Origin: Myxococcota bacterium
GTDB taxonomy: Bacteria > Myxococcota_A > UBA9160 > SZUA-336
Assembly: GCA_965247115.1 (NCBI GenBank)
Contig: CBDFGR010000003.1
Span: 2,464,001 to 2,528,000 of the forward strand
Direction of reading: 5' to 3'
DNA: 64,000 nt
In this document: piece after piece, positions 1,763-44,524 of the stretch
How the letters are laid out: each line of letters opens with the position of its first letter
Position numbering within the stretch: the first letter of the stretch is position 1
The notes under the pieces: generated by a model
Seen by the model: only the letters and a program-made list of their open reading frames with translations
Told to the model about the DNA's origin: nothing
The model's database searches: none
Program-made: the position numbers and the translations under genes

Positions 1763-2992
1763 CTAGCGGCCAATCAGCAAGTCGTCGATCAGCCGGGTGA
1801 GTTCACGAGCGAAGATCCTGTTGCCGAGCGGGGAAAAGTGGGCATTGCTGAAGAGGGGATCTTGGTCTCCACCAAGACGATCGGCTTCCCTTGCAAAGAC
1901 GGGCATGAGGTCGAGAACCTCGAGCCCAGCTTCGCGAAGCTGCCGCGTTAACGGCATCGAACTCACTCCGCGCCACCTGAAGATGAAATCAGGAGCGGGA
2001 AGCACAACGATCACCGGAATTGAACCGGCCGCGCTCGCCTCTTCGGCGAACGCTTTGGAGATGGCCACAGCCAACTCGTTCGCGATATTGAGCTCGCCCG
2101 AGTAGATATCCCGGTGGAGATTCCTTCGCCGCCAGCGATCGTGGACCGTGGCAACGACCCGAAGGGTTCGGATGTGGTACCACCATTTGAATTTCAGATC
2201 ACCCTGACGAATCCAGAATTCATAGTTGGGTTCCGGCAGAGTCTCGCTCGACATTTCCGCGATCATCTGCTCTCTGCCTCGAATCGGGGTATTGACGGCG
2301 CGCAGTTCCCCATCTTCCAATACGAAGCGCGGTTTCTCGCGTGGCAGCTCTCCGAATGTCAAGTAGTAGCGATTGATAGACAGAAGGCGGAAGAGATTGT
2401 CGGGCCAGATCCCAAAGATGGCCAGGTCTGCTTTGAATCTCTCTGCGTCGCGGCGCCAGCGCAGAAGAGCCTGGGAGGGCCCGTATCCTGGCACTCCGAA
2501 GTTCATGACCTCGACGTCAGGCCGCGATTCCTCCAATATGAAAGGCCAGGTGTCTTCGAAATCGACACGGGTAGCCCAGATCACGGAGTCCCCAACCGCT
2601 AGAAGTCGCAACTTGCCTTGGGGAACCTCCTCCTCGTAGATTCGGTCGCGTCTCGCATGCAAGAACTGCTTACTGACGTTGTTGTCTGGATCTTTGTTAA
2701 TCGGTATCCAGCCGAGGTCCTGATCACGCGCGAGAAAGGATGCTGCAGAAATGTGGTCCCAGGCTGCGGCTAATTGCTCCCGACTCGGACGATGCGGAAG
2801 AAGTTCCATCCTGGGTATGCTGGCTACCCCGCCAGTGCACAGCGTGCCGACAGGCGTGGTGCAGGTCATCAACCGCAGGAGCGCCTCCACTGATGTAGAT
2901 GCGACCATTAGCGAAAGCAAGGCTACAAGCAATTTGACTCGAGTTCGAGCCTTGCGTCTAGGAGTGGTAGCGTTTGAAAACTCGGTAGGCAT
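1763..2992 (-). CDS. Membrane-anchored SGNH/GDSL hydrolase (AlgX/AlgJ-like polysaccharide acylation protein)
   Basis: N-terminal TM, GDS, NFGVPGYG, C-terminal NAHFSPLGN. Confidence 0.8.
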   Translation of the reverse strand: MPTEFSNATTPRRKARTRVKLLVALLSLMVASTSVEALLRLMTCTTPVGTLCTGGVASIPRMELLPHRPSREQLAAAWDHISAASFLARDQDLGWIPINKDPDNNVSKQFLHARRDRIYEEEVPQGKLRLLAVGDSVIWATRVDFEDTWPFILEESRPDVEVMNFGVPGYGPSQALLRWRRDAERFKADLAIFGIWPDNLFRLLSINRYYLTFGELPREKPRFVLEDGELRAVNTPIRGREQMIAEMSSETLPEPNYEFWIRQGDLKFKWWYHIRTLRVVATVHDRWRRRNLHRDIYSGELNIANELAVAISKAFAEEASAAGSIPVIVVLPAPDFIFRWRGVSSMPLTRQLREAGLEVLDLMPVFAREADRLGGDQDPLFSNAHFSPLGNRIFARELTRLIDDLLIGR

Positions 2993-3634: not shown

Positions 3635-5173
3635 TTACTCGACAGCGCTCGTGATCTCGAAGAGGTCGTAGATCTGCTCCGTGTTGGGGAACGCGTAGAC
3701 CCGGTCGGGAAGGAGGGGAAGCGAAGTACCAAAATACTCGTTGAAGATGATCCGGAAGGTGTTGACGGGCGTCAGACTTGGGTGAAGTCCCTCCGCCTCG
3801 ACGCCAGGCAGGAGGAGGGCATTCAGGATCCCTGTCTTCTCGCGCAGTTCGTCTGGCGTTGTATCGCGCCAATCAATCAGCTTCTCGTCTGCAAAGATCC
3901 GGGCTGGGAAGGGCCCCTCGTCGGCTTGAATGATGATGATCGGTGCGACCTCGGACCTTCGGAGCAGAGTGTCGACGAGTTTGAGGATCTCGCCGTTGAG
4001 GAACTCGACTTGTCCGACGTAGTTGGTACGTCGATCCCGAAGCCGTTCCTCGGCCTTGCTCATGCAGTTTCCTTGTGCATCGACCACATAGGGCCAATGC
4101 GGGCTCAGTATGTGGGCGAAGACGAACAAGACTTCCTCGCTGGAGGCGATCTCCTTGAGCCGCTCAAACTTGAGCTTCACCCTCCTACACTGAACATCCC
4201 GATTGTTGACACCGGCCAAGATTCTGGTCCTTCGTGTGATGGGCCAGAACAAGGAGGATCGCAGCAGCGTCCTCGTAAACTCGTTCAGGTGCGCGTGTAT
4301 TTGGAGGTTCTCGTCGGCGTTCCGGTTCATGCGGGTGGGGTCCCACCAGGAACCCAGGTGTACGTAGCGATAGCCAGCACCGTGCAGGAGGCGCCCGACC
4401 TCGTGGTCCTGCATCAGGGCTCTCAACGGCTGCGTGTCGCTAGAATCCGGCCCCATCTCAGCCGCAAGTCGATCCAGATATTGCATATTGAGAGAAGAGG
4501 CCAGAGAGTGACCTGTTCTCAGGTAGTTCGACGCACTCCTAGAAGCGACGTAGAATCCTCTTGCTCGAAGTTGATCGAGAAATGGGGAGTTGTCGAAGCC
4601 GTAGCTCTCGGAGAGGACTCTCTGTGAGCCGTATCGGTCGAAGACCAGGAAGTAGACGCTCCGGGCCGGGCCGACGGGTATCAGTTCCGAGATAGGGAGC
4701 GCGAATTGCTCGGCGACATCGTACTCGTGGGTTCGTGCGAAGTGCGCCGCGAGCGAGACGGCCGGCATAATCACGAGGACCGCCGCGGCAATGTTTAAGA
4801 TGCGTGTGGCATCGACGAGAGTGGAGTTGCTCCGAGCGATCCACACGATGACCGTTGCAGAAGCGAGGACCCAAAGGGGGATTACGTAGCGGCCTTTGAG
4901 ACCGATCTCGATGACCGCATCGACCAGCTCGAAGACGTGGCCGTATGAGAACCAGGAGATGATCACGACGGAGGTGATCAATCCAGCCTTCCGCGCGCTC
5001 CTGAAGACCGCGTACACAACGGCGAAAGTAGCGACACCGAAGCCGAGAGAAAGGGAAAACCCAACCCAAGACTCCTCTGGCAGGAGAAGATCCGCTCCAC
5101 TTGCATAAAGCGCTAGCGGGGGATAAAGCGCCAGAAGAAACGGATGCGCGACGGGCGTGCGACGTCCAGACAT
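3635..5173 (-). CDS. Multi-TM protein with extracytoplasmic alkaline-phosphatase/sulfatase-like domain (NoeB/LTA-synthase-like)
   Basis: About 5 N-terminal TM helices; FLVFDRY, SNYLRT, HILSPHWPY, IQADEG motifs. Confidence 0.75.
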   Translation of the reverse strand: MSGRRTPVAHPFLLALYPPLALYASGADLLLPEESWVGFSLSLGFGVATFAVVYAVFRSARKAGLITSVVIISWFSYGHVFELVDAVIEIGLKGRYVIPLWVLASATVIVWIARSNSTLVDATRILNIAAAVLVIMPAVSLAAHFARTHEYDVAEQFALPISELIPVGPARSVYFLVFDRYGSQRVLSESYGFDNSPFLDQLRARGFYVASRSASNYLRTGHSLASSLNMQYLDRLAAEMGPDSSDTQPLRALMQDHEVGRLLHGAGYRYVHLGSWWDPTRMNRNADENLQIHAHLNEFTRTLLRSSLFWPITRRTRILAGVNNRDVQCRRVKLKFERLKEIASSEEVLFVFAHILSPHWPYVVDAQGNCMSKAEERLRDRRTNYVGQVEFLNGEILKLVDTLLRRSEVAPIIIIQADEGPFPARIFADEKLIDWRDTTPDELREKTGILNALLLPGVEAEGLHPSLTPVNTFRIIFNEYFGTSLPLLPDRVYAFPNTEQIYDLFEITSAVE

Positions 5174-5174
5174 C

Positions 5175-6554
5175 TCAACGACACCCGTAGAGGTAGACTG
5201 TACGCGACGTGCCTTCGAGTGGGGATCGTTCCTTTAGATCGAAGTGGGCACCGAATGCCTTCTCGAACGCTTCCTGAGTGTAGTGGGGGAAGATGTCGTC
5301 TCTACTGGCGAGTAGGCGCTGCGTCTGAGAATCCTCTTTCGGGACGAACTCGACGATCAGGTTCTCACAGAGGCCCCGCAGCCAGGCGGCGATGTTCGCC
5401 AGCGGCAAGTTGTTCCCGATCGCCAGGTGGTGGACCAGCGCTAGAGCCATCACGAGATCCGGCGGGCCGCGATCCTGCAGCGACATGCGCTCTGCGCCGG
5501 CCCAACCCAGTCCCGGACTCGGATTCGAGAGATCCATCACCAGCGGGAGGAGCCGCTGCTCTCTGCTTTGGCGCGCCTCTCGGTAATTCTGGTCAACCGC
5601 GCTCGGGTCGTAATCGAAGGAGACGGTATAGGCGCCGAAGTCGGCAGCGAGCCGGCTGAATACTCCCGTGTTGGCTCCTAGGTCCCAGACGGACGCGGGA
5701 CGGGTCTTGTCGATATAGCTCCGTACAACGGACTTCTTCTCGCTGAAAGAGCTATCCGAGTAGCTCGTCGCCCCGTAATAGTCGCCCCACTCCGTGGCTC
5801 CGGGGCTCCACTCCATTCGGCCAACGGCCGATTCGAGATTGTCAATGAGGCCCCGGAGAGCAGTGGGAGAGACCCCCCTGGTCCTCGCCTTCTGGGCGAC
5901 CTCGGGCGATCCCGCATAGCGGCCAAGTGAGCGCGCGTGAATGTGGATGTGTGTAAGAAGGGAGAACGAGAGGCGGCTCCGGAGAGGGAGCAGACGACTG
6001 GCCAGATCCAAAGGAACTCCATCTATGTTGGTGCGCATGAGCTTGAGCGCGTCGTGATGGCAGAGGCTCACGAGTGCGAGTGGAGCCAAGAAGTGGCGGC
6101 AGAACTGCTGGTAGGCCACCCACGGCTGTCCCTCTGGATAGATCTCGAACGAGAGGGTGTCGATGAAAACCGGCTTCGACCCCAAGAACTGAACGTTGTA
6201 GGCGCTTGCATCCTTCAGCCACATCCCCGCTTCGAGCGCCCTCTTCTGGAGGGCCAATGTGAGCAGAGCGGCTTCCTTGAGCTGGCTAAACGTCCACTCG
6301 TAGGGATACGAGATGAATGGAATGGGCTCGGGCCTCAGGAGCCTGTACGCGCCTTCCGTCCCCGGGACACTCGCCGGATCGACCTCCGAATGAGACACGA
6401 CGAGTCCAGCCTCGACGTTCGCTTGATGAAGACCTGACTCCATGAGGTGATCAAAATGGCGGCGATGGGCAGGCGCAACATATCGGTAGAGGAGCCCCCC
6501 GTGATGGAACAGGAAGCCGCTGGGATCCCGAAAGGAGCTAGTGATCCGCTCCAC
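5175..6554 (-). CDS. NoeA-like protein: kinase-like N-terminal domain plus class I SAM methyltransferase (start uncertain, 6554-6617)
   Basis: SFRDPSG, LKDASAYN, IDTLSF motifs; WDLGANTG SAM-binding motif; LALVHHLAI. Confidence 0.8.
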   Translation of the reverse strand: MERITSSFRDPSGFLFHHGGLLYRYVAPAHRRHFDHLMESGLHQANVEAGLVVSHSEVDPASVPGTEGAYRLLRPEPIPFISYPYEWTFSQLKEAALLTLALQKRALEAGMWLKDASAYNVQFLGSKPVFIDTLSFEIYPEGQPWVAYQQFCRHFLAPLALVSLCHHDALKLMRTNIDGVPLDLASRLLPLRSRLSFSLLTHIHIHARSLGRYAGSPEVAQKARTRGVSPTALRGLIDNLESAVGRMEWSPGATEWGDYYGATSYSDSSFSEKKSVVRSYIDKTRPASVWDLGANTGVFSRLAADFGAYTVSFDYDPSAVDQNYREARQSREQRLLPLVMDLSNPSPGLGWAGAERMSLQDRGPPDLVMALALVHHLAIGNNLPLANIAAWLRGLCENLIVEFVPKEDSQTQRLLASRDDIFPHYTQEAFEKAFGAHFDLKERSPLEGTSRTVYLYGCR

Positions 6555-6795
6555 GGTCGACTTCGGAAGCGGAACCGTCGTCCCGATGCGGTGGCGGATC
6601 GCTCGAGCCGAAACCAAGGCGCCCTCGGAGCTTGCGCCAGTAGATCTTGAGCGTGAAGAGGCCCGCCATCAGGCTTGCAAATGCCACTTGGAGCACCATG
6701 CTCCCGGTGCCGAGGTCGAGATAGGCGTGCGCGGACATCGGCCAAACCAACACCAAGACGCCACTTGCGCTCGCGAGTCGCAGTGCCTTACTCAT
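6538..6795 (-). CDS. Small membrane protein (AYLDxGTGS family) usually found upstream of NoeA-like genes
   Basis: Signal-like segment ending AHA, then YLDLGTGSMVLQ, a TM helix and a basic YWRKLR; overlaps the next gene. Confidence 0.75.
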   Translation of the reverse strand: MSKALRLASASGVLVLVWPMSAHAYLDLGTGSMVLQVAFASLMAGLFTLKIYWRKLRGRLGFGSSDPPPHRDDGSASEVDRGADH

Positions 6796-6967: not shown

Positions 6968-7687
6968 CTAGCCTCTCAGAACCGTCCTGTATCGTTGGTA
7001 CTCGGAATCTGGAAGCGATTCGACCATGACGCGTGCGGGCGTCCCAGAAGCTATTGACCGCGGGGGAATCGAATCTAGGACTACGGAGTTTGCCGCGATA
7101 ACGCTCTCGTGGCCTACCTCAACCGGTCCGAGAATCGCTGAGCCCGCGCAAACTATGACCCCGTCGCCGAGAGTCGGGCGGTGTAGGTTCCCGCTCCCAA
7201 CGCCAAGTGCGTCACCTACAGTGACACCCTGGTAGATCGTGACGTCCCGGCCAATCACGCAGCCTGAACCGATCACTGTTGAAAGGCCATGAATCAGCTT
7301 CAGCCCTGGTCCAATCTCGGCGGAGTAGTAGATCTCAGATCCAGTCATCGTTCGACCGAGGGCTGCGATGACATCTGGGATCTCGGGGACTTGGGCACGA
7401 TGTAGCTCGTGACTGAGTCGATAGAGATAGGTGGCGAGCAAGTTGGGAGCGAGCAGGAGCCGCTCAAAGAGATGCTCCGCGCTATCGAAGTTGGCCTGCC
7501 AGCGAGCCAAATCGGATTCGAATGCGGCAGCACTTGCAGCCACAGCTCCAACCCACTCCGGGTTTGCCCGAATTCTTCTCGGCGCGAGGAGACGCGTAAA
7601 CCGCTGGTAGGGCCCTGTAGCCAAGCACCCTCGGAGAAACCGACGAACCTTCCCGGGAAAGGCTGGCTTGTTCCACGATGACGGCAC
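6968..7687 (-). CDS. Serine O-acetyltransferase-like (CysE/WcaB) hexapeptide acyltransferase
   Basis: AEIGPGLKLIHGLSTVIG, IYQGVTVG, PTLGDGV, IAANSVV left-handed beta-helix repeats. Confidence 0.85.
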   Translation of the reverse strand: MPSSWNKPAFPGKVRRFLRGCLATGPYQRFTRLLAPRRIRANPEWVGAVAASAAAFESDLARWQANFDSAEHLFERLLLAPNLLATYLYRLSHELHRAQVPEIPDVIAALGRTMTGSEIYYSAEIGPGLKLIHGLSTVIGSGCVIGRDVTIYQGVTVGDALGVGSGNLHRPTLGDGVIVCAGSAILGPVEVGHESVIAANSVVLDSIPPRSIASGTPARVMVESLPDSEYQRYRTVLRG

Positions 7688-7910
7688 GCTCTCTCCTCAG
7701 TTGGGGGCATCGTTTCACACTCTGGGCAACAAACGAGGTCGTCGCTTCGGCCCCCGGGACGGGAAGAGTGGATCGGACTATAGGCTGCCTGGGGGTGGAT
7801 TTCCGCAGTTCCTTCACTCCATGATACACTGAGACAGGAGTTTTCTTGCTGGGCTGTGACTCCATCCCGCGTACCAAGGTGACCCTCCTGGGGGCCCATC
7901 CAGACCTGGC

Positions 7911-9867
7911 ATGACAGAGACCATCCCAGAGATAGCCGACGACCTGTTCGCACAGGCAACGCTCATTCGCACGGTAGAACTTCGCCTGCTGGACCTGTTC
8001 TCCGAGGGAAAGCTCTCCGGCACCGTCCACACCTGCATAGGCCAGGAGTTCACTGGAATAGCCGTGTGCAGTTTCCTGGGGAACGACGATCTCATCTTCA
8101 GCAACCACCGGTGTCACGGGCACTTCCTTGCCCGCACCGGCGATGTAGACGGGCTGGTGGCGGAGGTCATGGGCAAGGAGTCCGGCGTCTGCGGGGGGCG
8201 GGGGGGCAGCCAGCATCTCTGCTCTTCGGGATTCTTCTCGAACGGTGTTCAGGGAAGCATCGTGCCTGTCGCGGCAGGTCTCGCATTGGCCAAGAAGCGA
8301 GACGGCGTAGGAGGAGTCGTAGTTGCCTTTATCGGAGATGGGACACTCGGTGAGGGCGTTCTCTATGAGACGCTCAACATAGCTTCCAAATGGCAACTGC
8401 CGCTTCTGATCGTCCTCGAGGACAACGGATACGCCCAGAGCACCCCGCAGAAGCAGTACATCTCGGGAGAGATACCTCTACGTGCGCGGGCGTTTGGGAT
8501 CGAGACTGGCACTACCGATACATGGGATCTCGAAGGTCTCTTCAACGACAGCAGAAAGGCGGTCGAGTTCGTCCGGCTCGAGGCAAGGCCGTATTTTCTC
8601 AAGATCCGATACGTATCGCCTTATGGCGCACTCGAAGGGCGATGACGATCGCGATCCCGGTGAGGTCCAAGGCTTCTGGGCAAGGGACCCCCTGACGCAG
8701 TTCCGTAGTCGTTCTCTAGATAAGGCTGACTCGTTTGAAGCGATCGCAACAAGTCGTGTTGAGGACGCTGTTGCTAGGGCGGAGAGCGCCTCGCACGCGA
8801 CGCTTCCCAAAGATCTGATACCCGTCGCATCCCGGAGTGTGGAGTGGCTACGAACTGACTTTGATTCACGCGACCGCGTGGTCAACAGGATCCACGCGGC
8901 CCTCAGGGCACGCCTGGAAGCGGACGAACGTGTATTCATCCTCGGCGAAGACATCGAGGGCCCGTATGGTGGGGCGTTCAAGGTAACCAAGGACTTGAGC
9001 TTGGAGTTTCCTGGGCGGCTCCGGAATACACCGATAAGCGAGGCCGCGATAGTCGGAATCGGCGCCGGCCTTGCCCTCGCCGGAAAGCTCCCCGTGTGCG
9101 AAGTGATGTTTGGTGACTTCCTGGCGCTCGCCTTTGACCAGATTCTCAACTCGGCCGCCAAGTTCAACTTCATGTACAACGAGCAGGTGGAGACTCCGCT
9201 CGTTATTCGCGCACCGATGGGGGGGAGGCGTGGGTACGGCCCAACCCACAGTCAGTCGATCGAAAAGCACTTCATGGGGATACCCGGAACGGTCGTTGTT
9301 GCGCCACATCACCGGTACGACCCAGCTCTGCTGTACGAGAGGATCCTGACGACCTGCAAGCGGCCCACGCTCGTAATCGAGAACAAGCTCCTCTACGGAG
9401 AGCGTATATCACCGGAGGTCGAGGACCAGTTCACCCTCGAGCACTCGAACGAGGGCCTCCCAACAACACGCATCCGCCCCGGAGTCGACCCCGATCTGAC
9501 GATAGTCTGCTACGGGGGAATGCTCCGCCAGGTAGAAGCCGCATTGGCGCCGCTCTTCGAGGACTACGAGATCCTTTGCGAAGTGCTGTGCCCGACCCAG
9601 CTTTACCCCTTGAACGCCGGCCCGATCCTCGACTCGGTGCGGCAGACGAGGCGTCTCCTGGTGGTGGAAGAGGGGATCGGTTTCGCCGCTTTTGGCTCCG
9701 AGGTGATTGCCCAGCTATGTGAGCTTCTAGGTCCGCTCCCGTTCAATGTGCGAAGACTCGCCAGTGCACCTGTGCCAATTCCCAGCTCCCCTCCTCTGGA
9801 AAGAGCTGTACTTCCGGGGACCGAGGACGTCGTCGAGGCAGCCCGCGCGACGGTCGGCGATGCCTAG
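7911..9867 (+). pseudogene. Fused 2-oxoacid dehydrogenase E1 alpha/beta (ThDP-dependent), split by a +1 frameshift at about 8606
   Basis: Alpha: HTCIGQE, NHRCHGH, GDG..N ThDP motif, YRLMAHS in the second frame. Beta: GEDI..YGG, NTPISE, GPTHSQ. Removing one C of AAGATCCGAT gives KIDTYRLMAHSKG. Confidence 0.85.
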
Positions 9868-11149
9868 TTCGGTCGAAGTAAGAGCGCCTCGTGAGAATGT
9901 GAATGACGAGTTTATAACTGTAGTGAAGTGGTACGTAAGGAGCGGAGATCACGTAGAGAAGGACCAGCTCATTGTGGAGGTGGAAAGCAGCAAAGCGATC
10001 CTAGAGCTGACGTCCCCTGCTGCTGGCTTTGTTCTGGTCCACTGCGAAGAGGATGTCGATGTGGCCATCGGAACCGTATTGTGCGAGATCGGCGAGTCGC
10101 GATACTCGTCCGTCGACTCGGCGGTAGGGGCGAAGGAGAGCTCGGAAGAGCGACATCCCCGTTTCAGCAAGAAGGCAAGTGAGCTGATCGCTGCGCGCTG
10201 TATAGGATCTGAGGCGTTTGAAGGGCTCCAGTTCGTTCGCGAACGGGACGTGTTCGCTGCGGTAGGGGAGGCACCTGATCCAGGGTCTCGAGTGGAACGG
10301 GGAGGGCGCTCGCGGAAGGCGAGGGCGTCCGACGAGTGCGGGGGAGTTCCCTACACCACTCAAAGACTCTCGCCGAGCAAACGAGCTGAGGGGCGACTTC
10401 TCCGCACGGCGCGAGACCAGAGCGTCCAAGCGGGAGTCACGACTTCGATCCGAGTGCCCGGTCTGATGGAGGGTGCCCGCGCTCATCCTCACATGGGCGG
10501 CAGCATCACCCCGCTCTTGGTCTATGAGGTTGCTCGCCTCTTGCGAAAGTACCCGATCTTGAATGCATTCTGCGACGGTGATTCCGCATGCTTGTATGAG
10601 GATGTGAACGTGGGCGTCGCCGTTGACTCTGGTGAGAGCCTGAGAGTTCCTGTGATTCATCGCGCCGACGCCAGGGGCCTTGCTGCGATCTCGCAGGATG
10701 TACGGGAGGCGCTGGTCGACTATGTAGAGGGTCGGTTGACGCCTGAGCAGGTGACTGGAGGTACGTTCACGATCGCGGATTTATCTGGCGAAGGAGTCTT
10801 GCTGAATCACCCAGTTCTCAATCAGGATCAGTCGGCAATCCTTGGAGTGGGAAGCGATCGAGGACGGGATGACGTGGATATCCTCAACTTCACACTTGCC
10901 TACGACCACCGGCTTACAGAGGGGGTTACGGCAACCCGTTTCCTCAGAGACCTCGAACACCGTCTGGTCGGTCACCAAGAAGCGCTTCGACAGATCGCAG
11001 GTGACGAGTTCGCAAGCGGTGAACCCACGTGTCAACGTTGTTTCCGGGGCGTTGCAGAGCTCGAACGCCAAAATCACTTCGTGGTTCAGACACTGGGTCG
11101 AGACGGCCAGACGGTGCCCATTTGCTCCTCTTGCCTGCAGGGCTGGTGA
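9860..11149 (+). CDS. 2-oxoacid dehydrogenase E2-like acyltransferase (lipoyl domain plus catalytic domain) with C-terminal Cys4 motif
   Basis: EVESSKA lipoyl Lys, GGTFTI, DHRLTEG; tail CQRC...CSSC; ATG overlaps the E1 stop. Confidence 0.85.
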   Translation: MPSSVEVRAPRENVNDEFITVVKWYVRSGDHVEKDQLIVEVESSKAILELTSPAAGFVLVHCEEDVDVAIGTVLCEIGESRYSSVDSAVGAKESSEERHPRFSKKASELIAARCIGSEAFEGLQFVRERDVFAAVGEAPDPGSRVERGGRSRKARASDECGGVPYTTQRLSPSKRAEGRLLRTARDQSVQAGVTTSIRVPGLMEGARAHPHMGGSITPLLVYEVARLLRKYPILNAFCDGDSACLYEDVNVGVAVDSGESLRVPVIHRADARGLAAISQDVREALVDYVEGRLTPEQVTGGTFTIADLSGEGVLLNHPVLNQDQSAILGVGSDRGRDDVDILNFTLAYDHRLTEGVTATRFLRDLEHRLVGHQEALRQIAGDEFASGEPTCQRCFRGVAELERQNHFVVQTLGRDGQTVPICSSCLQGW

Positions 11150-11970
11150 TGAGCGTCCCCGACTCACTCCGCGCCGCGGTTGCCGAATTCTTCAACGTTG
11201 ATTCGGAATTGATCACGGACGACTTCCCTCTCTCAGGCCCTCGGCTCGTCAACTCGATTGCGCGCGCGAAACTTGATGCTGTGATTCGACGCCGGACAGG
11301 CCTCCGATCCGATGCCGCCTATGTCGCTCACACCTATGGAGAACTGGAGGGTCGTCTCCTTCGCCCTCATGCAGTTCAGGTGCCCGGAGATTCTGAAGCA
11401 AGCGTTGCTCGGCATACCGGCGTCTCGGTTCCAGTCTTCCAGGCAGGTCTCTCGTGCGGCATCGACATCGAGGACATCGAGAACCTTCCCGAGGCCAGTG
11501 ACTACTGGGAAGATGACTTCTACAAAGCCAACTTCTCTCCGGCCGAGATCGCCTACTGCGTGGCCCAAGATGATCCACGTGAACACTTCGCAGTGAGGTG
11601 GGCAGCGAAGGAAGCGCTGGCTAAATGCGATCGGCAGCTGGTCGCCGCAGGCTTCGCGGGGGTTGAGATGGTGTCGTCATCTCAGGCAGCACCAACTATG
11701 CGAAATAGCGCGACTAAGCAGTCTCTGCCGGTAGCCGTCAGCGTCTCTCACAGTGCTCGTGCCGCGGTTGCCATCGTAGTTTGGGGAGGTGGGACCACCA
11801 AGGTAGAGACGATCAGTGGACCGCCCGACGAAGGCGAGTCTACCGATCTGAGTAAAGAGGATGACGGCAGGGCGGGCCTGATCTCTTGTCAACGGAAAAC
11901 TAGGTGGCCTGTTGCAGCCGTTGTCGCGGTCGTTGGAGTCTCGATCTACGCTCTCTGGCTGGCCCGCTAG
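11149..11970 (+). CDS. acpS: Acyl-carrier-like domain fused to AcpS-type 4'-phosphopantetheinyl transferase with C-terminal TM
   Basis: GIDIEDI, FAVRWAAKEALAK, VSVSHS; N-terminal ACP-like helix with LVNSIAR; TGATG coupling to E2. Confidence 0.8.
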   Translation: MSVPDSLRAAVAEFFNVDSELITDDFPLSGPRLVNSIARAKLDAVIRRRTGLRSDAAYVAHTYGELEGRLLRPHAVQVPGDSEASVARHTGVSVPVFQAGLSCGIDIEDIENLPEASDYWEDDFYKANFSPAEIAYCVAQDDPREHFAVRWAAKEALAKCDRQLVAAGFAGVEMVSSSQAAPTMRNSATKQSLPVAVSVSHSARAAVAIVVWGGGTTKVETISGPPDEGESTDLSKEDDGRAGLISCQRKTRWPVAAVVAVVGVSIYALWLAR

Positions 11971-11995
11971 GCCGCCACCAGTTTAATGCGTTGTC

Positions 11996-13042
11996 TCATA
12001 GGTTAGTCCTCATGCGCTCCGCGTCGGCATCGAGATCTCCAGTAAGTCTCGAGAGCCAGGCGAGCCGATTGCGAAGCCACACGCGCAGCTCGATCCTGCG
12101 CCTCAGTCCCGAACTCGACGCGAGCTGGGCCGACTTCCGCATGCGCTCGAGAAGGAAGTATAGGTAGGCGAGGAGCGCAAAGGACGCCGAGCTCCCATGC
12201 AGCGTGTACTCGTCCCAGAATGTTTGCCAGAGCTCCGATGCGCGGCGGCCGGCGGCTGCGGTGCGAACGCCGTCGTATTCGAGCGCATGGTGCATGCACG
12301 AGACGTCGTGCTCCATAGGGCCGAAACCGAAGCCCTCCATGTCGAGCGCATAGAGAACGCCGTCGACTCCCATTAGGAAGTTCTTCGGCCTCGCGTCCCC
12401 GCGGGTCGGGTATTCGCGGTGCATGCGAGCGACGTCTGCGTCTCCGAGTCGTCGCACGTACCTCTCCACGTGGCGCACGAGGTGCTCCAATTCATCGGCC
12501 GCCCCCAGAGCGGACTTCAACGCCCCGGCGCGCTCCCGGATCTTGTCAAGGTAAGTGAAGGGATCGAGGCCCCCGTCTGCGCGAGCACCCCGGGCGCGAA
12601 ACACTCCGAGCCAACGAGCGATGTGTCTCGCTTGGCCGCGAGCCTCCTCGACGGGGCGCGAGCGATGCCAGCCGAGCACGGCTCGATCGATGATCGTTCG
12701 GGTGAGCTCTCCAGGTTGGTATCGGGTGACCAGGAAATTGGGACCGGTCCCCCACCCGAGGGGCTGCACGACCCCCAGATCGGCGGTCGAATCTGAAGTG
12801 ATCTCACTGAGAAGCCCCGTGGCGAACTCCAAGGCTTTCTGCTCGTGCGCCGGCGAGTAAGGGTCGGAGTCCACTTTCACCACGTAGAGAGGATCGGGGG
12901 CTCCCCGCGTCGCGACGTAGAAGATCATGCTCTTGTAGTGCCGTGTCTTGAATCTTCGGGGAAGAACCTGCATGTCGGCCTCCCTGCAATCGAGATCGGC
13001 GGCGCAGATCTCGATTGCCTCGGGCGGTAGTCGTGTGGTCAT
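11996..13042 (-). CDS. APH/choline-kinase-like phosphotransferase
   Basis: YVVKV, RGDARPKNFL catalytic loop, ALDMEG. Confidence 0.65.
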   Translation of the reverse strand: MTTRLPPEAIEICAADLDCREADMQVLPRRFKTRHYKSMIFYVATRGAPDPLYVVKVDSDPYSPAHEQKALEFATGLLSEITSDSTADLGVVQPLGWGTGPNFLVTRYQPGELTRTIIDRAVLGWHRSRPVEEARGQARHIARWLGVFRARGARADGGLDPFTYLDKIRERAGALKSALGAADELEHLVRHVERYVRRLGDADVARMHREYPTRGDARPKNFLMGVDGVLYALDMEGFGFGPMEHDVSCMHHALEYDGVRTAAAGRRASELWQTFWDEYTLHGSSASFALLAYLYFLLERMRKSAQLASSSGLRRRIELRVWLRNRLAWLSRLTGDLDADAERMRTNL

Positions 13043-13397
13043 CCCATTCCTTGTCCGCGCAACTTCCTATCCGACCTCCGAGCCAACAATATCCCGTACT
13101 CATCTGAGTCTCTACACGGCTCCTAGGACGCTCAGCCATCCTGCATTCTGATGGACTCTAGTCTAGGCTACCGGCAAGCTGTTGGTGATTCTGTGAAGGC
13201 TCAGGAGCTTTCGGAGAGCATCCTGCTAGCCGACGGATCAAGATGTCTATGAATCGTGCCGAGGTGGGCGAGCTATTGATTCCCCGCAGACCGGAATCGC
13301 TTCGGACGCCCGATCGCACGGGAAGCGAGAGGGTCTCTGAGGCAAGGTCGAACTCTCGCAATGGATCCAACCGGATGAAAACCCTCGGTTTGGGCGA

Positions 13398-14780
13398 ATG
13401 AGGTCGAACGAGTGCATTCCGGGGCACAACTCTCCGCCGAGGTACACCGCTCGAGAAGTCGGCAGCCTTCTCGTCCTTCTGATCGGGATCGCGATAGTCG
13501 GATCCAGCCTCGTACTCAACCCGTGGATCGCTCGACTGTGGCAAGGTCCCTTCGTAGTCGACAAGATTGACGTTCTCTGGAAATACTTCGTTTCGAGCCT
13601 CACCCTTGGCTCCGCGACTGTAGTTCTAAGCTGGGCGCTCCGACGATCCCTGGCGAGGCGGATCGACAAGCTTACAGTGCTCTTTGTGATCTGCACGGCG
13701 ATCTTTCTCGGAGATCGACTTCTGCTGGTTAGGTCCGGCTTACCACTCTGGACCTACGACTCGCAGCTCCACTTCCGCCACCGTCCAGGTGCGGTGCGAA
13801 CCTTGAAGCAATCGAGGCCACCGGGAGATCTGATCCGTATAAACTCTCATGGCTTCCACGACGAAGAATTCGATGAAGAGAAGGGTCGGCGTGAGTTGCG
13901 GGGACTCGTGATCGGGGACTCAGTGACGATGGCATACGGCCTTACCTATAGAGAGACGTTTAGTTCGCACCTCGAGCGACTCCTTGAGACTAATATCGAG
14001 TTCTATTCCTCGTTTCAGATAATCAACACAGGAGTCCATGGCTACGGAACCTCGCAGGAAGTACAAGTACTTCGAGATGCGATGCGATTTGATCCGGACT
14101 TCATCGTCGTTGGTTTCTGCATGAATGACGTGACTGAACCGTTCGTAGTTCGACGCGGGCTCGGAGGTGTTGGCTTCGACTACCATGGAATTCGAGAGGC
14201 CGCAAATCCTTTGTACGGTTATCTCGTCAACGAGACGGGACTGGGCCGGTTCACTCTGCAACTAAAGTGGCGTGCACGGAGGCTCGAGGCAGCCAAACTG
14301 CAAGAGGTCTGGGATGTTAGACAGATGTCCCAGAGCTCTCGACTAGATCCGCCATTCGACAGAGCGTGGGAACTCGTACTGTCGGATCTGGAAGAGATGT
14401 ATGAACTCGCCCAGATCCACGACATCCCAATCGTTCTGTTGATCTTTCCGCTCAGCTTTCAGCTGGTTGACGATCAGCTCCGAATGCCCCAGGAGGTCCT
14501 CAAGGGTCATGCGGCAGATCAAGGAGTCGAGGTTATCGACCTCACCGATAGGTTCAGCGAGCTTGTGTTCTCGGATACGGAGACACTTACTTTCTTACGT
14601 CGGAGGGGCTACGGAGCGGAGGAGATCGAGCAGTTCTTTCAGTGGAGAATCAGTACCTACTTCCTTGACGCTGACCACTTCACCGACGTAGGGCACCAGG
14701 TCATCGCGGAAGCTGTCTTTAACTACCTAAGTACGGATCTGCTGAGTTCGAAACGAGAACCAGTAGGCCCTGCATCTTGA
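13398..14780 (+). CDS. Membrane-anchored SGNH/GDSL hydrolase family protein
   Basis: Three TM segments, INSHGF, IGDSVT, NTGVHGY, FCMND, DADHFT. Confidence 0.85.
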   Translation: MRSNECIPGHNSPPRYTAREVGSLLVLLIGIAIVGSSLVLNPWIARLWQGPFVVDKIDVLWKYFVSSLTLGSATVVLSWALRRSLARRIDKLTVLFVICTAIFLGDRLLLVRSGLPLWTYDSQLHFRHRPGAVRTLKQSRPPGDLIRINSHGFHDEEFDEEKGRRELRGLVIGDSVTMAYGLTYRETFSSHLERLLETNIEFYSSFQIINTGVHGYGTSQEVQVLRDAMRFDPDFIVVGFCMNDVTEPFVVRRGLGGVGFDYHGIREAANPLYGYLVNETGLGRFTLQLKWRARRLEAAKLQEVWDVRQMSQSSRLDPPFDRAWELVLSDLEEMYELAQIHDIPIVLLIFPLSFQLVDDQLRMPQEVLKGHAADQGVEVIDLTDRFSELVFSDTETLTFLRRRGYGAEEIEQFFQWRISTYFLDADHFTDVGHQVIAEAVFNYLSTDLLSSKREPVGPAS

Positions 14781-15331
14781 TAATGATTCGGTCGCACGGT
14801 CAGTGATATGCCTGTAGAAGACTCGCCGATATCCGTTCCCGTTCGCAGGTTTCTCGGCGGTTGCGTGCATGCCGCTACCATGGAACAGGCGGTGGAGATC
14901 TGCCGTGGCGCGATAGCCGGCAAAGGCGGTCTTACGATAGCTGTTGTCAATGCTGCGAAGCTCGTCAACATGCGACATGACCCCGCTCTGCGGGAGGCTG
15001 TTCGCTCGGCCGGGCTGATTCTGGCCGATGGAATCGGCGTGGTCTGGGCGAGTCGCCTATTGGGCGCGCCACTCCCTGAGCGCGTAACTGGAATCGATCT
15101 CTTCCTCGAACTCCTGGAGCTCGCTGATCGCGAGCGGTTGTCAGTCTACTTCTTGGGTGCCAAGACGCTAGTCCTCGAAGACATGCTTCGGCGAGTGCGC
15201 GAACGTCACGTGGGCCTCCGCGTGGCCGGCCATCGCGATGGCTACTTCGGGGCCGAAGAGGCAGAAGAGGTGGCGCATGAGATCAGTGCGGCGGACGCCG
15301 ACATCCTATTCGTAGGCATCTCCACCCCTAA

Positions 15332-16606
15332 CAGGCTGCGGAGAAAGTGACTGGTTGAGGGGTGGTCCTTCCGACGAGGGGGTTCACCGGCCGAGGGGCG
15401 GGGCGCGATTCCCGGTTCGAACCGGTCTTGGGCTCCGCTGATCGCGGGGCGGTTTCGCACATGACCTACGTGGCCTCCAGCAGCTTGCGGATCCGGATCA
15501 GGTTGTAGGCTGCGGCCGTGAAGGTGAAGACCCAGCCGACCCGATCCGTGCCGCGGTGTCGGGTCTTGCGCATCAGCCCCACGGTCTTCATCCAGCCGAA
15601 GACCTCTTCCACCCGTTTGCGAAAACGCTGACTCAGTTCGTAGCCCCGGTGGCGCGTCGTCCGCCCGTCGATCGCGCTGCGTCGATTCGTCGTGTTCTGC
15701 GCCACGTGTGGGGTCACGCCCAACTCTCGAAGCTCTTCCACGAACCCCTTCGTGTCGAAGCCCTTGTCTCCGCCCAATGTCCTCCGACGCCCGCCTCCCA
15801 GACCTTCCACCATCTCGAGCGCCGCTTCGCGCTCCGCATATCCCGACGCCTGCGTGAGCTTCGCCGCGACCACCAAGCCGTTCCGGTTCTCCGTCACCAC
15901 GTGTCCCTGGTACGCGAGTCGGGCGCCTTGGCCTCTCATACCGGCGAGTCGTGCGTCGGGATCCGTCGTCGACGCATGCGTCTGGTTGCTCCGCTTCTCG
16001 CCTCGGAAGTTCACCGTCGGGTTGCCCGGGTCATCGTCGTCTCTCCGTTCCTCGTCCTTCCGTACGAAGCTCTTCTGGCTCGCCCACGCCTCGATCAGCG
16101 TCCCGTCTACCGTGAAGTGCTCCAACGACACCCATCCCTCGGTCTCGGCCTGCTCCAGCACTGCGTCGAAGAAGTGCTCGGCAATCTCGCCCTTGAGCAG
16201 CCGGTCTCGGTTCTTCGTGAACACCGTGGCGCTGAACACCACCTCGTCAAGCTCCAGACCCACGAACCAGCGATACAGCAGGTTGTACTCCAGCTGCTCC
16301 ACCAGCTGCCGCTCGCTCCGGATGGTGTAGAGCACCTGCAGCAGCAGGGCGCGCAGCAGCTGCTCCGGGGGCACGGACGGGCGCCCTACGCCTCTGGCGT
16401 AGATCGCGTCGAAGCGCGGCGATAGCCGCTGCAGCGCCGTGTCGACCATGCGCCGCATCGCTCGAAGCGGATGATCATCCGGAATCCGCGACTCCAGCGA
16501 CACGTAGCTGAACATCCCGCCCTGAAGCGTCCCCTGTCCTCTCACGCCTCCCCCTTTGGGGCTCGCTCCCAAGGTACCCTTCGATGAGGAGTTTTTCAGC
16601 AGCCTG
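15332..16606 (-). mobile_element. IS5-family insertion sequence, copy 1 (1275 bp)
   Basis: IRs CAGGCTGCGGAGAAA / CAGGCTGCTGAAAAA; 4-bp TSD CTAA at 15328-15331 and 16607-16610. Confidence 0.95.
15466..16545 (-). CDS. IS5-family DDE transposase
   Basis: Probable GTG start; SYVSLESRIPDDHPLR, TVDGTLIEA, GDKGFD, RKRVEEVFG motifs. Confidence 0.95.
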   Translation of the reverse strand: MRGQGTLQGGMFSYVSLESRIPDDHPLRAMRRMVDTALQRLSPRFDAIYARGVGRPSVPPEQLLRALLLQVLYTIRSERQLVEQLEYNLLYRWFVGLELDEVVFSATVFTKNRDRLLKGEIAEHFFDAVLEQAETEGWVSLEHFTVDGTLIEAWASQKSFVRKDEERRDDDDPGNPTVNFRGEKRSNQTHASTTDPDARLAGMRGQGARLAYQGHVVTENRNGLVVAAKLTQASGYAEREAALEMVEGLGGGRRRTLGGDKGFDTKGFVEELRELGVTPHVAQNTTNRRSAIDGRTTRHRGYELSQRFRKRVEEVFGWMKTVGLMRKTRHRGTDRVGWVFTFTAAAYNLIRIRKLLEAT

Positions 16607-16963
16607 CTAAGAAGGAGCTGTTTCTGAGGCGGTACGGCGCGCGCATGGGGGTCGGAGTTTCGCATGGTGTGGGGGGTGCCTTCGACATCCTTGCCGGAAA
16701 GACTCGCCGTGCTCCAGTTGCTTGGCAACAGCTTGGTCTCGAGTGGCTCTATCGCCTGTGGCAAGAGCCGCGCCGTATGTTGAAACGGTACGCCATCACC
16801 AACACCCGCTTTATCGCGATGGTGGCGGCAGAGTGGATTCGCCGGAGATTGCAACACTAGTCATGAGATACGTTGAGGAACTGTGGATGGTCGGCCGCGC
16901 GCAGGCGCGACTGTGGTCAGCTTCGACCTCCGTTGGTGCGAGCGCGCTGTAACGTGGAACGTC

Positions 16964-18154
16964 TTAGACGGAGAGGACCTGGGGTGTGAGCCCCATTCTG
17001 TCGAGCTCGATTGTTATCTCGTTACGATAGATTGGATTCATGAGGATCACTGCGTCGGGCTGGTAGCTACGAAGGGCGCCGGGGGCTACGATTTCCTGCC
17101 CCGTACCTGCCTGGAATTTGCCTTGCTTTCGCTCGTTTATGTCGACGACGTACTCGATCTCGTCATGGACACGGAGAGTCGCGAGGAAGCCGGCCGCTTT
17201 CGAACCCGATCCCCATACGGCCATGCGTTTCCCCTGGGCGCTTAAGTCGTCGAGCTTTTGCCGCCAGCGCTTCACCTCCTGGGAGACGTTCCGAGAGAAC
17301 CTCTCAACGCTTGCGAGCACCTCTTCGAGGTCGTCTTCTCCGGGTAGAGGAGCGGCCCTCGGCTCTGGGCCAGAAGTTGCAACGATAGTCAGGTACTGAT
17401 CGTCATAAACTCTGTCGAGCTCCAGAATCTGATGGTCGCAGGAGCGAAACAGACGCGCCAACGATCCCAAGCTGAAGTAGCTACAGTGCTCGTAATAGAG
17501 GTCCCAGAATGCGTTCTCGGAAAGAATGCGGGTGACGTCGGGAACCTCGAAGAATATTCGCGCGCCAGGCCTGGCGCTAGCGGAACCCCGGATCATCTGT
17601 ATGAACGCTCTTGGATGCGCTACGTGCTCTAGCGTGTGACGGCACGCGAAGAAGTCACCGAGCGTGCCCAAGTCCTGTCCGCCATAGAGTTCTCTCACGA
17701 GGGTCACGCGATTGTCTTGCCGGGCTTGCTGATTTGGGGGAGTTAGCGGGTCAAACCCTAATCCGAGATTATCTCCGAGTTCGCAGATCGCTCGCAGGAA
17801 CTCACCGCTGCCGGATCCGATCTCGATGATGGTCTTTTCCCGCAGTCCATGGCGCTCGATGAGTCCATCGCACAGCCCGCGTAGGTACCTGGAGAAGTGC
17901 GGCGAGAATGCTTGGGAGGTCTCGTAGGCCGACTCAGGGACTTGAGTGGGTTCCTGGAAGAGTGAGTTGGCGATGAACCCGCAGACCTCGCAGATCACCA
18001 GCTGCAGGTCCATCCTCGGGAAGGCTAGCGCAGCCTCTCGTGAATCCAGCAGCACAGTGCTCTCGACGGGAATGTCGGACACTTCGTAGAAGACCCGCAG
18101 CCGATCCGCGCCGCAAGCACGGCAGAGGTCAGATGCGATCACACCGCCTCCCAT
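16964..18154 (-). CDS. NDP-hexose C-methyltransferase-like SAM methyltransferase
   Basis: CRAC..CEVC Zn site, EIGSGSG, YYEHCSYFS, C-terminal WGSGSKA...KQGKF domain. Confidence 0.85.
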   Translation of the reverse strand: MGGGVIASDLCRACGADRLRVFYEVSDIPVESTVLLDSREAALAFPRMDLQLVICEVCGFIANSLFQEPTQVPESAYETSQAFSPHFSRYLRGLCDGLIERHGLREKTIIEIGSGSGEFLRAICELGDNLGLGFDPLTPPNQQARQDNRVTLVRELYGGQDLGTLGDFFACRHTLEHVAHPRAFIQMIRGSASARPGARIFFEVPDVTRILSENAFWDLYYEHCSYFSLGSLARLFRSCDHQILELDRVYDDQYLTIVATSGPEPRAAPLPGEDDLEEVLASVERFSRNVSQEVKRWRQKLDDLSAQGKRMAVWGSGSKAAGFLATLRVHDEIEYVVDINERKQGKFQAGTGQEIVAPGALRSYQPDAVILMNPIYRNEITIELDRMGLTPQVLSV

Positions 18155-18193: not shown

Positions 18194-18856
18194 TTAGTTG
18201 GTGGGACGAAGTACACCGAGTTTGAGCTTCGGGGCGTAGAAGGCTTCCGCGTATCTGCTGGGCGAGCGACATTCCATTCCCCTCAGCCGCAGTAAAGAGT
18301 AGAAGGTGTCCTCGGTAAACCAGTCCCGTCCGTGTTGGCTCTCAAAGCACGTGTAGAGAGCTTCGAATTTTCGCTGGCAGATCTCCTGGGATAGCGGGAC
18401 AAAGACGTTTGGTGCTCCGAGATCTCCGTCCCACTTCGGGATTTCGTACTCGAGAATCAGATGATCGCGGAAGCTGCTCCAGGTCAGCTCCGAGATGAGA
18501 CGGTGATCCTGGTGGAGGTCGCCACGCTGGTGGGTGAGGATGAGATCGGGCGAGAACTCGCGCTTGAGCCTCTCGAAGTACTCCTTGATGGCGGTACCAC
18601 AGTAGGGAAAGAAGCTCTCCCGAAACTCCTCAACGGCGATGTGCCTGGACCGGGCCTGTGAAAGAAAGATCTCCGCGGACTTCAGGGCCTCTCTCTTTCG
18701 TTGCTCATCCGATGCAAAGACGACCCAGTAGACCTCTGCGCTGGGGACCTGCTCGAGGATTGTGAGAATGGTCCCCCCACAGCCGATCTCGATATCGTCA
18801 CAGTGTGCGCCCAGGCACAGGATCCGATCCACACCCGTGGGATGGAGCTCAATCAT
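18194..18856 (-). CDS. PIG-L/LmbE family deacetylase
   Basis: GAHCDDIEIGCGG and DLHQDH motifs. Confidence 0.9.
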   Translation of the reverse strand: MIELHPTGVDRILCLGAHCDDIEIGCGGTILTILEQVPSAEVYWVVFASDEQRKREALKSAEIFLSQARSRHIAVEEFRESFFPYCGTAIKEYFERLKREFSPDLILTHQRGDLHQDHRLISELTWSSFRDHLILEYEIPKWDGDLGAPNVFVPLSQEICQRKFEALYTCFESQHGRDWFTEDTFYSLLRLRGMECRSPSRYAEAFYAPKLKLGVLRPTN

Positions 18857-22383: not shown

Positions 22384-22463
22384 GCGGGAAGTGGAATGTT
22401 GACGTCGGTCTTCGATCAATGCAAGACTGCTCTGAAGGAGCTGGCGGGAGAACGGTCGACGCG

Positions 22464-39998: not shown

Positions 39999-40193
39999 GA
40001 GGTATCCTACTCTATTCACCTCAGTTTATCGAGGCGATGTAATCTTGATCACCTCACAACTAGAAGAGTCCCGCCGAGAACGAAATGCGTAAGAGACCTG
40101 CACCGAACTTCACCGACGAGGACTCCTCTTTTCTGGCGTCGCGGAGTAGGATACCCGGACCCAGAGATCCGATCTCAGCATCGCGGAGGAAGC

Positions 40194-44385: not shown

Positions 44386-44524
44386 GTGCTTGGGGATCTT
44401 CTGCGGAGCTTTGCGGCCTCGAAGTGATCGTCTGGGGTCCGCTATGGGGAGGGAAGCGCGACGAAGCACTCGACGATGGGGGCCTCGCTATGAGCTCCCG
44501 CCGCTGCCCGTGAAGACCGCCTAG

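Follow-up and report, generated by a model that had tools for sequence, protein, structure and literature searches.

A cassette that likely loads acyl groups for glycan decoration without CoA, probably present as a recent pseudogene copy in a glycan island of a Myxococcota bacterium

The DNA considered here, called the window throughout, is a stretch of 64,000 nucleotides from the genome of a Myxococcota bacterium (assembly GCA_965247115.1, contig CBDFGR010000003.1, positions 2,464,001 to 2,528,000). Four genes at 6968–11970 of the window are the subject of this analysis. A hexapeptide acyltransferase is encoded on the minus strand and is followed on the plus strand by three genes, hereafter the cassette, for an E1 and an E2 of the 2-oxoacid dehydrogenase type and for a protein in which a carrier domain is fused to a phosphopantetheinyl transferase (PPTase). 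Their features, with family matches in brackets, are as follows.

6968–7687, minus strand: CysE/EpsC/WcaB-like hexapeptide (left-handed beta-helix, LbH) acyltransferase, a predicted user of an acyl carrier (Hexapep, 4.8e-12)
7911–8606, plus strand: first piece of E1, the thiamine diphosphate (ThDP)-binding or alpha part, to ...RPYFLKI (E1_dh, 6.4e-35, profile positions 3–220 of 300)
8606–8607, plus strand: frameshift site, one extra base in CC (ATC C GAT), where relatives are unbroken
8608–9867, plus strand: second piece of E1 in the +1 frame, with the remainder of the alpha part (DTYRLMAHSKGDD...) and then the beta part, made of pyrimidine-binding and C-terminal domains (Transket_pyr, 1e-28; Transketolase_C, 3.3e-16)
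9860–11149, plus strand: lipoyl-E2, with a lipoyl domain, a helix pair resembling a peripheral subunit-binding domain (PSBD), an acyltransferase core and a four-Cys tail (Biotin_lipoyl, 3.4e-12; 2-oxoacid_dh, 7.6e-39)
11149–11970, plus strand: carrier domain (residues 1–72), AcpS-type PPTase (101–213) and C-terminal hydrophobic helix (253–272) (ACPS, 9.8e-15)

A gap of 223 bp separates the LbH gene from the divergent E1. The LbH protein scores 132.2 bits with the NCBIfam model EpsC (cut-off 150) and 122.6 bits with cysE (cut-off 210.65). Within the cassette the genes are packed so tightly that the E1 stop (TAG, 9865–9867) overlaps the E2 start (ATG at 9860), and the E2 stop (TGA, 11147–11149) overlaps the ATG of the carrier–PPTase at 11149. 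The frames of E2 and of the carrier–PPTase are both intact. A first, sequence-only reading of this region had described a translationally coupled set of fused E1 alpha-beta, lipoyl-E2 and carrier–AcpS fusion, diverging from a CysE-like acyltransferase. The overlaps, the E2 and the divergent gene are all as described. The fused E1 stands in part: the alpha and beta parts are both present, but they do not form one open reading frame (ORF), the frame being broken at 8606/8607.

In E2, alignments locate the lipoyl lysine at Lys45 and the catalytic histidine at His350. Relatives keep the lipoyl Lys, the PSBD-like RFSxxAxxL...GLVRxxDV and the DH(R/Q) motif. Residues 380–429 (10997–11149) form a C-terminal tail, CxxC...CxxCxxGW, the four Cys of which (C391, C394, C422 and C425 in the window) are invariant in 17 aligned sequences; this alignment excludes L013, an E2 without the tail, and L015, the E2 of which is garbled. 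Neither the tail nor the E2 linker has a usable Pfam match at E<=10, and we know of no such tail in canonical E2s, whose C-terminus supplies the contact on which the 24- or 60-mer core is built. The tail may be a zinc ribbon, either serving as a dock for a partner or keeping the E2 core from assembling.

The N-terminal 72 residues of the last protein are modelled by AlphaFold as the four-helix bundle of an acyl carrier protein (ACP), with Ser36 opening helix II (pLDDT 84 for the whole protein, 87 for the carrier domain alone), in line with the ACP–AcpS fusion seen earlier from the sequence. Ser36 is the sole invariant residue of this domain (35 of 35 sequences). Foldseek returned only the PPTase domain when run on the whole model; the carrier domain, folded and searched separately, gave top matches that are almost all ACPs (TM 0.6–0.73), with weak E-values (>=5e-3), which is usual for a query as short as 76 residues. 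A profile built from this domain also matches ACPs among the PDB sequences (best E 3.3e-4). Positions 4–56 of this profile align to residues 4–56 of Escherichia coli ACP (1acp), which would bring Ser36 close to residue 36, the phosphopantetheine serine of E. coli ACP. The PPTase domain scores above cut-off with PF01648 (55 bits, cut-off 25) and TIGR00556 (48.1, cut-off 45.35), and its model resembles bacterial AcpS and the PPT domain of fungal fatty acid synthase (FAS) (TM 0.7–0.77; best 2wat, E 8.4e-8). D106, E108, K154, E155 and K159 are invariant, and we take them to be catalytic. The alpha chain of fungal type I FAS likewise holds an ACP and an AcpS-type PPT in one polypeptide, but the present protein is a small two-domain one with a membrane tail, outside any megasynthase. 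At the C-terminus, a hydrophobic helix or a basic amphipathic tail is common among carrier–PPTases, although some lack both.

Housekeeping paralogs, spread and glycan surroundings

The host genome holds several enzymes of the same general kind. There are six E2-core matches, that of the window being the weakest (136 bits versus 211–277), eight E1_dh matches and a separate AcpS gene. Two lipoamide dehydrogenases (Lpd, the E3 component) score above cut-off, at C3:16273–17643 and C2:971226–972590, and both stand beside other E2 genes. In the window itself TIGR01350 finds no match and no ORF scanned belongs to a Pyr_redox family; the absence of a nearby E3 had been remarked from the sequence alone. 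The window E1 is 28–35% identical to its own paralogs versus 49–66% to cassette E1s of other phyla. In the maximum-likelihood tree of E1-beta, 17 cassette rows and five own paralogs are split with support of 100/100 by a branch of 1.97, and the E2 core tree gives the same split with an SH-like approximate likelihood ratio (SH-aLRT) of 100. NCBIfam scores of E1 and E2 are all far under equivalog cut-offs (e.g. 180.6 versus 393.85 and 133.2 versus 722). With five further E2 genes, several further sets of E1 and both Lpd genes lying elsewhere in the genome, and with a fully supported split from the paralogs, sequence comparison supports the earlier view that the cassette is not part of central metabolism: it neither groups with the housekeeping enzymes nor is their only copy.

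Scans of genomes and metagenome contigs gave 160 loci, among which 31 encode a full-length carrier–PPTase fusion. A cassette-type E2 lies directly upstream in 29 of these 31; the two loci without it, L097 and L100, have 502 and 34 bp of upstream sequence. A fused E1 is found in all 20 loci with at least 1797 bp upstream. According to their record titles, the genome loci come from six phyla (Nitrospirota, Planctomycetota, Actinomycetota, Elusimicrobiota, Verrucomicrobiota and Spirochaetota). The fusion is rare in a word-indexed search (11 matches); out of 1.84 billion cluster representatives, a profile of 35 members picks up 564 at E<=1e-30. The closest relative (P0002), on a 33-kb JGI contig, has a carrier–PPTase 78% identical to that of the window.

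None of 40 relatives of the host genome (2 share its genus, 22 its family and 16 its class, and 29 of the 40 are at least 90% complete) has the fusion at E<=1e-10. The GC content is 0.58–0.63 over 1–36000 of the window versus 0.64–0.69 in nearly all later bins (one bin has 0.564). Collectively, the absence from relatives, the low GC and the presence of insertion sequence (IS) elements point to horizontal acquisition of the island and its cassette.

This part of the window is a polysaccharide island, as had been proposed, with Pfam matches to glycosyltransferases, sugar-nucleotide enzymes and C-methyltransferases. The surroundings of the family are similar. Pfam was run on 148 ORFs flanking 21 related loci, which gives 22 loci with the window (L012 is the same sequence as L095 and is counted once). 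Most of the time the flanks encode glycosyltransferases, epimerases/dehydratases, UDP-sugar dehydrogenases, initiating sugar transferases, parts of Wzm/Wzt-type ABC transporters and polysaccharide deacetylases, and glycan genes stand beside 17 of the 22 loci (exceptions are L011, L012/L095, L013, L091 and L102). Such an analysis of neighbourhoods, suggested with the first reading, thus gives a near-obligate triad in a recurrent glycan setting. No E3, nonribosomal peptide synthetase (NRPS) condensation domain, MBOAT or AT3 occurs among the 148 flanking ORFs, and the Pfam scan of window ORFs found no condensation domain, MBOAT or AT3 either.

Among these neighbours, LbH acyltransferases recur. 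Ten of the 22 loci have one directly next to the cassette or joined to it (window, L008, L009, L010, L014, L015, L017, L091, L105 and L109, that of L008 being a broken ORF seen by tblastn only). Counting second neighbours, as in L012/L095 and L094, brings the figure to 12 of 22; in L007 the gene is 5.8 kb away. Nine of the 148 flanking ORFs match Hexapep, and eight of the nine are first or second neighbours. Since tblastn with the CysE-like protein of the window missed most of these genes, the counts rest, L008 apart, on Pfam and NCBIfam. In L105, one ORF of 481 residues (8121–9566) joins carrier, ACPS, PglD_N and Hexapep, a gene fusion that ties the carrier to what is by homology a PglD-type sugar N-acyltransferase. 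The same locus has an ORF of 1482 residues (9439–13887) in which FAD/NAD-binding, AMP-binding, PP-binding, PglD_N and Hexapep domains are joined; by its domains this is a second, putative carrier-fed sugar acyltransferase, of the adenylation type. LpxA and LpxD are LbH acyltransferases that use acyl-ACP on UDP-sugars and thus give a precedent for this enzyme class with such a donor. The neighbours of the cassette differ from them, being CysE/WcaB-, WbbJ/WcaF-, Vat- or PglD-like, families the characterised members of which, we assume, use acyl-CoA; the use of a carrier-bound donor here is a prediction.

Proposed acyl loading onto the carrier

Peng et al. 2012 is said, in papers citing it, to be the primary paper on the Qnc-type system, in which a comparable logic operates. 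The closest known systems, likened here by description, are QncN/QncL/QncM (quinocarcin), NapB/NapD/NapC (naphthyridinomycin), SclQ1–4 with SclP (scleric acid) and RenH/RenI (described in PMC6335953, PMC7570522 and PMC13249901). In the scl set, SclQ2 is the ThDP protein, SclQ3 carries the pyrimidine-binding and transketolase C-terminal domains, SclQ4 the lipoyl and acyltransferase domains, SclQ1 is the ACP and SclP the PPTase (PMC6335953). The three sources describe, as shared features of the Qnc, Nap and Scl systems, a ThDP part, a pyrimidine/transketolase C-terminal part, a lipoyl domain, an E2-type acyltransferase and a dedicated ACP, with a PPTase in scl as well; they place the acyl unit on the carrier protein rather than on coenzyme A (CoA) and describe no dedicated E3. 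At this level of description the parallel with Qnc drawn by the sequence-only reading fits the domain set, as SclQ1–4 plus SclP illustrate. The cassette departs from these systems in its setting, which is glycan genes and not NRPS genes, and in its likely acceptor, an LbH sugar acyltransferase rather than a condensation domain. It departs also in its architecture, with alpha and beta fused, a separate E2 with a four-Cys tail, and a carrier that shares its chain with the PPTase and a membrane tail.

Given the conserved triad, the glycan setting, the split from paralogs, the ACP fold with Ser36 and the association and fusion with LbH enzymes, the cassette likely makes a short acyl-S-carrier for the acylation of sugars. 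E1, with ThDP, would take a short 2-oxo acid, or a ketose, and would reductively acylate the lipoyl group on Lys45 of E2. The E2 core, through His350, would then acylate not CoA but the phosphopantetheine borne by Ser36 of the carrier. The carrier would be primed by its own fused AcpS domain and kept at the membrane by its C-terminal helix, the adjoining LbH acyltransferase would move the acyl group to a sugar, and a housekeeping Lpd would re-oxidise the lipoyl arm. We infer every one of these chemical steps from domain homology and from the Qnc/Scl precedent; acetyl, glycolyl and other short groups are all candidates for the acyl unit. The whole reading, a horizontally acquired three-gene cassette that is likely a CoA-independent acyl loader for glycan decoration and here probably a recent pseudogene cassette, is held with moderate confidence. 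The route to acyl-S-ACP for glycan decoration that had been proposed from the sequence thus survives at the level of the family, by comparison of loci; it does not extend to an intact local copy, in view of the E1 frameshift, an Ala at position 306 of E2 and a split WecG gene.

Several points weigh against this reading. Pfam PP-binding (PF00550) has no match to the carrier domain even at E<=10, and in one related Atlas cluster it is found in 14% of members; the carrier motif is (G/N/S)S(I/L/V)xRA, not DSL. A cell with acetyl-CoA has no obvious need of acetyl-ACP. LbH genes are common in glycan clusters generally, none is seen within the flanks scanned in 9 of the 22 loci (L011, L013, L016, L093, L096, L099, L101, L102 and L107), and those found belong to different subfamilies (CysE/EpsC-, WbbJ/WcaF-, Vat/phn- and PglD-like). 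Finally, L014/L015 and L012/L095/L102 are close kin, so that the locus counts are not independent.

A more specific version can be put forward tentatively, with rather less than even confidence: a widespread, mobile, CoA-independent line in which a lipoate-driven pair of E1 and E2 would load a self-priming, membrane-tethered carrier that feeds LbH enzymes, so as to place a non-acetyl group, e.g. glycolyl, on surface glycans in at least six phyla. If so, it would be a way of tailoring glycans for which we know of no characterised case. Neighbouring genes give isolated hints to the substrate, none of them seen repeatedly, and these were not used: L101 has a 2-hydroxyacid dehydrogenase, L009 and L015 have DAO-type oxidases, and L015 also has a class IV aminotransferase.

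A related possibility, which we consider somewhat improbable, is that the cassette is a true module of the Qnc/Nap/Scl type, in which a ketose phosphate is cleaved and glycolyl-S-carrier supplies glycolyl to the glycan. Its domain set equals that described for SclQ2, SclQ3, SclQ4, SclQ1 and SclP (PMC6335953), and NapB/NapD-type pairs are described as making a C2 unit from xylulose-5-phosphate (PMC7570522). A non-CoA route is also most sensible where the cell keeps no pool of the acyl group as its CoA ester, and the D-2-hydroxyacid dehydrogenase near the cassette of L101 could make hydroxypyruvate. This neighbour is, however, present in 1 of 22 loci only, the likeness to Qnc/Nap/Scl is by description and not by sequence comparison, and the fusion pattern differs (alpha-beta here, beta-E2 in QncL). 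Moreover, the E1 alpha part is closest in sequence to pyruvate-type E1 alpha, and the scans of the window and flanks found no NRPS or condensation domain.

State of the local copy

In the window E1, frame 0 from 7911 runs to ...RPYFLKI, continues for 11 out-of-frame residues and stops at 8645. The protein resumes in the +1 frame from 8608 as DTYRLMAHSKGDDDRDP..., including the whole beta part. RPxFLxIDTYRLMAHSKGDD is uninterrupted in seven relatives, each with a single ORF of 653–680 residues, and since all seven read through in one frame, the window E1 carries one extra base at CC 8606/8607. Of the seven intact fused E1s, that of L017 is 52% identical to the first piece and the other six are 61–64% identical to it; the second piece is 49–58% identical to cassette E1s. 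The break falls within the alpha domain, just ahead of the conserved HS loop. Logan contigs from three of three runs are identical to the window over 8200–9000 (0 differences, 0 gaps, depth 3–4); as all three were made from a single sample in a single study, which may have supplied the assembly itself, their agreement is not independent confirmation. The frameshift is nevertheless likely to be real. Programmed +1 frameshifting at ATC-CGA was set aside, there being no stop or slippery motif at the site and no shift in relatives.

Other signs of decay are found in E2 and next to the cassette. The position of the Thr/Ser in GGTFT-I/V-T/S-DLS, the oxyanion residue according to work on E2p and chloramphenicol acetyltransferase, is occupied by Ala306 in the window (GCG, 10775–10777) versus Thr or Ser in 18 of 18 relatives. 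The window end branch is 0.92 in the E2 core tree versus a median of 0.47; in the E1-beta tree it is ordinary (0.51 versus a median of 0.46). Downstream lies a broken gene of the glycan island:

14808–16857, plus strand: WecG/TagA-family glycosyltransferase gene split by an IS (Glyco_tran_WecG, profile positions 1–108 of 168 only)

An IS of 1259 bp occupies about 15351–16609, with the upstream part of the gene at 14808–15350; the C-terminal remainder, ...GVGGAFDILAGKTRRAP...LEWLYRL..., reads on from about 16600 to 16857. This IS, with a DUF772 + DDE_Tnp_1 transposase, has 28 copies of 99.8–100% identity in the 5.17-Mb genome, two of them in the window (15351–16609 and 44516–45799), which indicates a recent IS expansion. 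On account of the E1 frameshift, Ala306, the long E2 branch and the split WecG gene, the local cassette is probably a recent pseudogene, within an acquired glycan island decaying in an IS-expanding genome. Loss of function of this copy is itself read from the sequence and is probable.

Against this stands the view, which we hold to be unlikely, that the local copy is functional, the frameshift being an artefact or E1 being made as two polypeptides, the second from the in-frame ATG at 8623 after the break. A systematic sequencing error is possible, given three runs of one sample at a depth of just 3–4 that may be the assembly source. Apart from the shift, neither E1 piece contains a stop and both are highly conserved, the E1-beta branch is ordinary, E1 in two pieces might conceivably still assemble, and Ala306 may lower E2 activity without abolishing it. 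However, three separately assembled runs concur without an indel, the site is a run of two bases and not a long homopolymer, the break lies inside the alpha domain just before the HS loop, and other fresh damage is at hand in the 28 near-identical IS copies and the adjoining split WecG. Decay of the local copy is therefore the preferred reading, and a probable fresh pseudogene is a poor candidate for experiments; the intact cassettes of L009, L014 and L017 are better ones.

Further alternatives, the wider island and significance

Two SGNH proteins, noted in the first reading as neighbours of the cassette, are encoded in the window; one scores above and one below the family cut-off.

13398–14780, plus strand: membrane-anchored SGNH/GDSL protein (Lipase_GDSL_2, 1.6e-10, 42.2 bits, above cut-off), hydrophobic at 21–39 and 93–111; context only
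1763–2992, minus strand: weaker SGNH-like protein with an N-terminal anchor (Lipase_GDSL_2, 24.3 bits, below the cut-off of 32.9), hydrophobic at 21–39; context only

Dedicated carriers are known in the modification of cell-surface glycopolymers, namely in the D-alanylation of teichoic acid by DltA/DltC/DltB/DltD and in the rhizobial NodF and RkpF. These are loaded by an adenylating ligase or by enzymes of fatty acid synthesis, whereas the cassette would use a ThDP/lipoyl pair, and no MBOAT is found in the window or flanks scanned. An extracytoplasmic route of the Dlt kind, in which the tethered carrier would serve membrane or SGNH proteins that acylate the polymer outside while the LbH enzyme uses acetyl-CoA independently, appears improbable. 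The transmembrane helix or basic amphipathic tail of many carrier–PPTases, the two anchored SGNH proteins of the window and the SGNH gene just after the cassette of L007 speak for it. Conservation, however, lends the SGNH proteins no role in the cassette, since an SGNH gene directly follows it in L007 only (1 of 22 loci, versus 10 of 22 for LbH); neither MBOAT nor AT3 is found in the window ORFs or the 148 flanking ORFs, and in L105 the carrier is part of one chain with a PglD-type enzyme, which is cytoplasmic.

The enzymes of the cassette share much with the pyruvate, branched-chain 2-oxoacid and 2-oxoglutarate dehydrogenases (PDH, BCKDH and OGDH) with E1 of the heterotetrameric type: the E1 alpha/beta domains, the ThDP motif and both His-Ser/His-Ser-Gln motifs, and in E2 the lipoyl-Lys domain, the PSBD-like segment and the core with DH(R/Q) and catalytic His. 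They differ in forming a distinct clade with a single-chain E1 and no E3 gene, in the zinc-ribbon-like extension of E2 and in the carrier–PPTase gene that always follows E2. That the cassette is just a catabolic or housekeeping dehydrogenase of 2-oxoacids (or acetoin), producing acyl-CoA and standing in a glycan island by chance beside an unrelated carrier–PPTase, is highly improbable: although the best family matches are PDH E1 alpha/beta and PDH/OGDH E2, the closest solved chains are PDH and BCKDH components (PDH E2 in the case of E2) and His350 and the lipoyl Lys45 are present, the scores far under equivalog cut-offs, the full-support separation from five own paralogs, the lack of E3 in the window and in the flanks of 21 related loci, the overlap of the E2 stop with the carrier start and the E2–fusion order in 29 of 31 loci, the invariant four-Cys tail (not known from canonical E2s) and a neighbourhood of glycan genes instead of catabolic ones all speak against it.

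The rest of the window offers several observations in their own right. Three genes of the NDP-hexose C-methyltransferase type (Methyltransf_13/14) lie on the minus strand at 16964–18154, 18849–20129 and 20132–21382, with a PIG-L/LmbE deacetylase among them (18194–18868, minus strand) and an epimerase/dehydratase adjoining (21379–22419); the group suggests a sugar that is branched or rich in C-methyl groups. At 3635–5173 on the minus strand, a protein with a sulfatase fold and three hydrophobic segments near its N-terminus has the architecture of lipoteichoic acid synthases and phosphoethanolamine transferases, and might add a phospho-substituent to the glycan. On either side of the four genes, also on the minus strand, are a protein of 348 residues without a family match (11996–13042; DinB_2 at 0.0068 only) and one of 480 residues with only a weak C-terminal methyltransferase match (5175–6617); relatives of the two are absent next to the cassettes of other loci. 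Where the low-GC island is about to end, the gene of an IS1595-family transposase comes immediately before that of an N6/N4 DNA methylase (32018–33759). Outside the island, an acetolactate-synthase-type ThDP enzyme of 651 residues and then a 4HBT_2 thioesterase (39891–42325) are unrelated to the cassette.

In the open-access literature (PMC, bioRxiv) no paper was found on such a cassette in a glycan context, and the carrier–PPTase family, sizeable as it is with its 564 cluster representatives, has no name. If the proposed function is true, the ThDP/lipoyl-to-carrier logic would extend from a few actinomycete antibiotic pathways to the tailoring of surface glycans in many phyla. Some hexapeptide sugar acyltransferases, routinely annotated as acetyl-CoA enzymes, would draw on a private carrier protein, and environmental polysaccharides would bear acyl substituents that have gone unrecognised.

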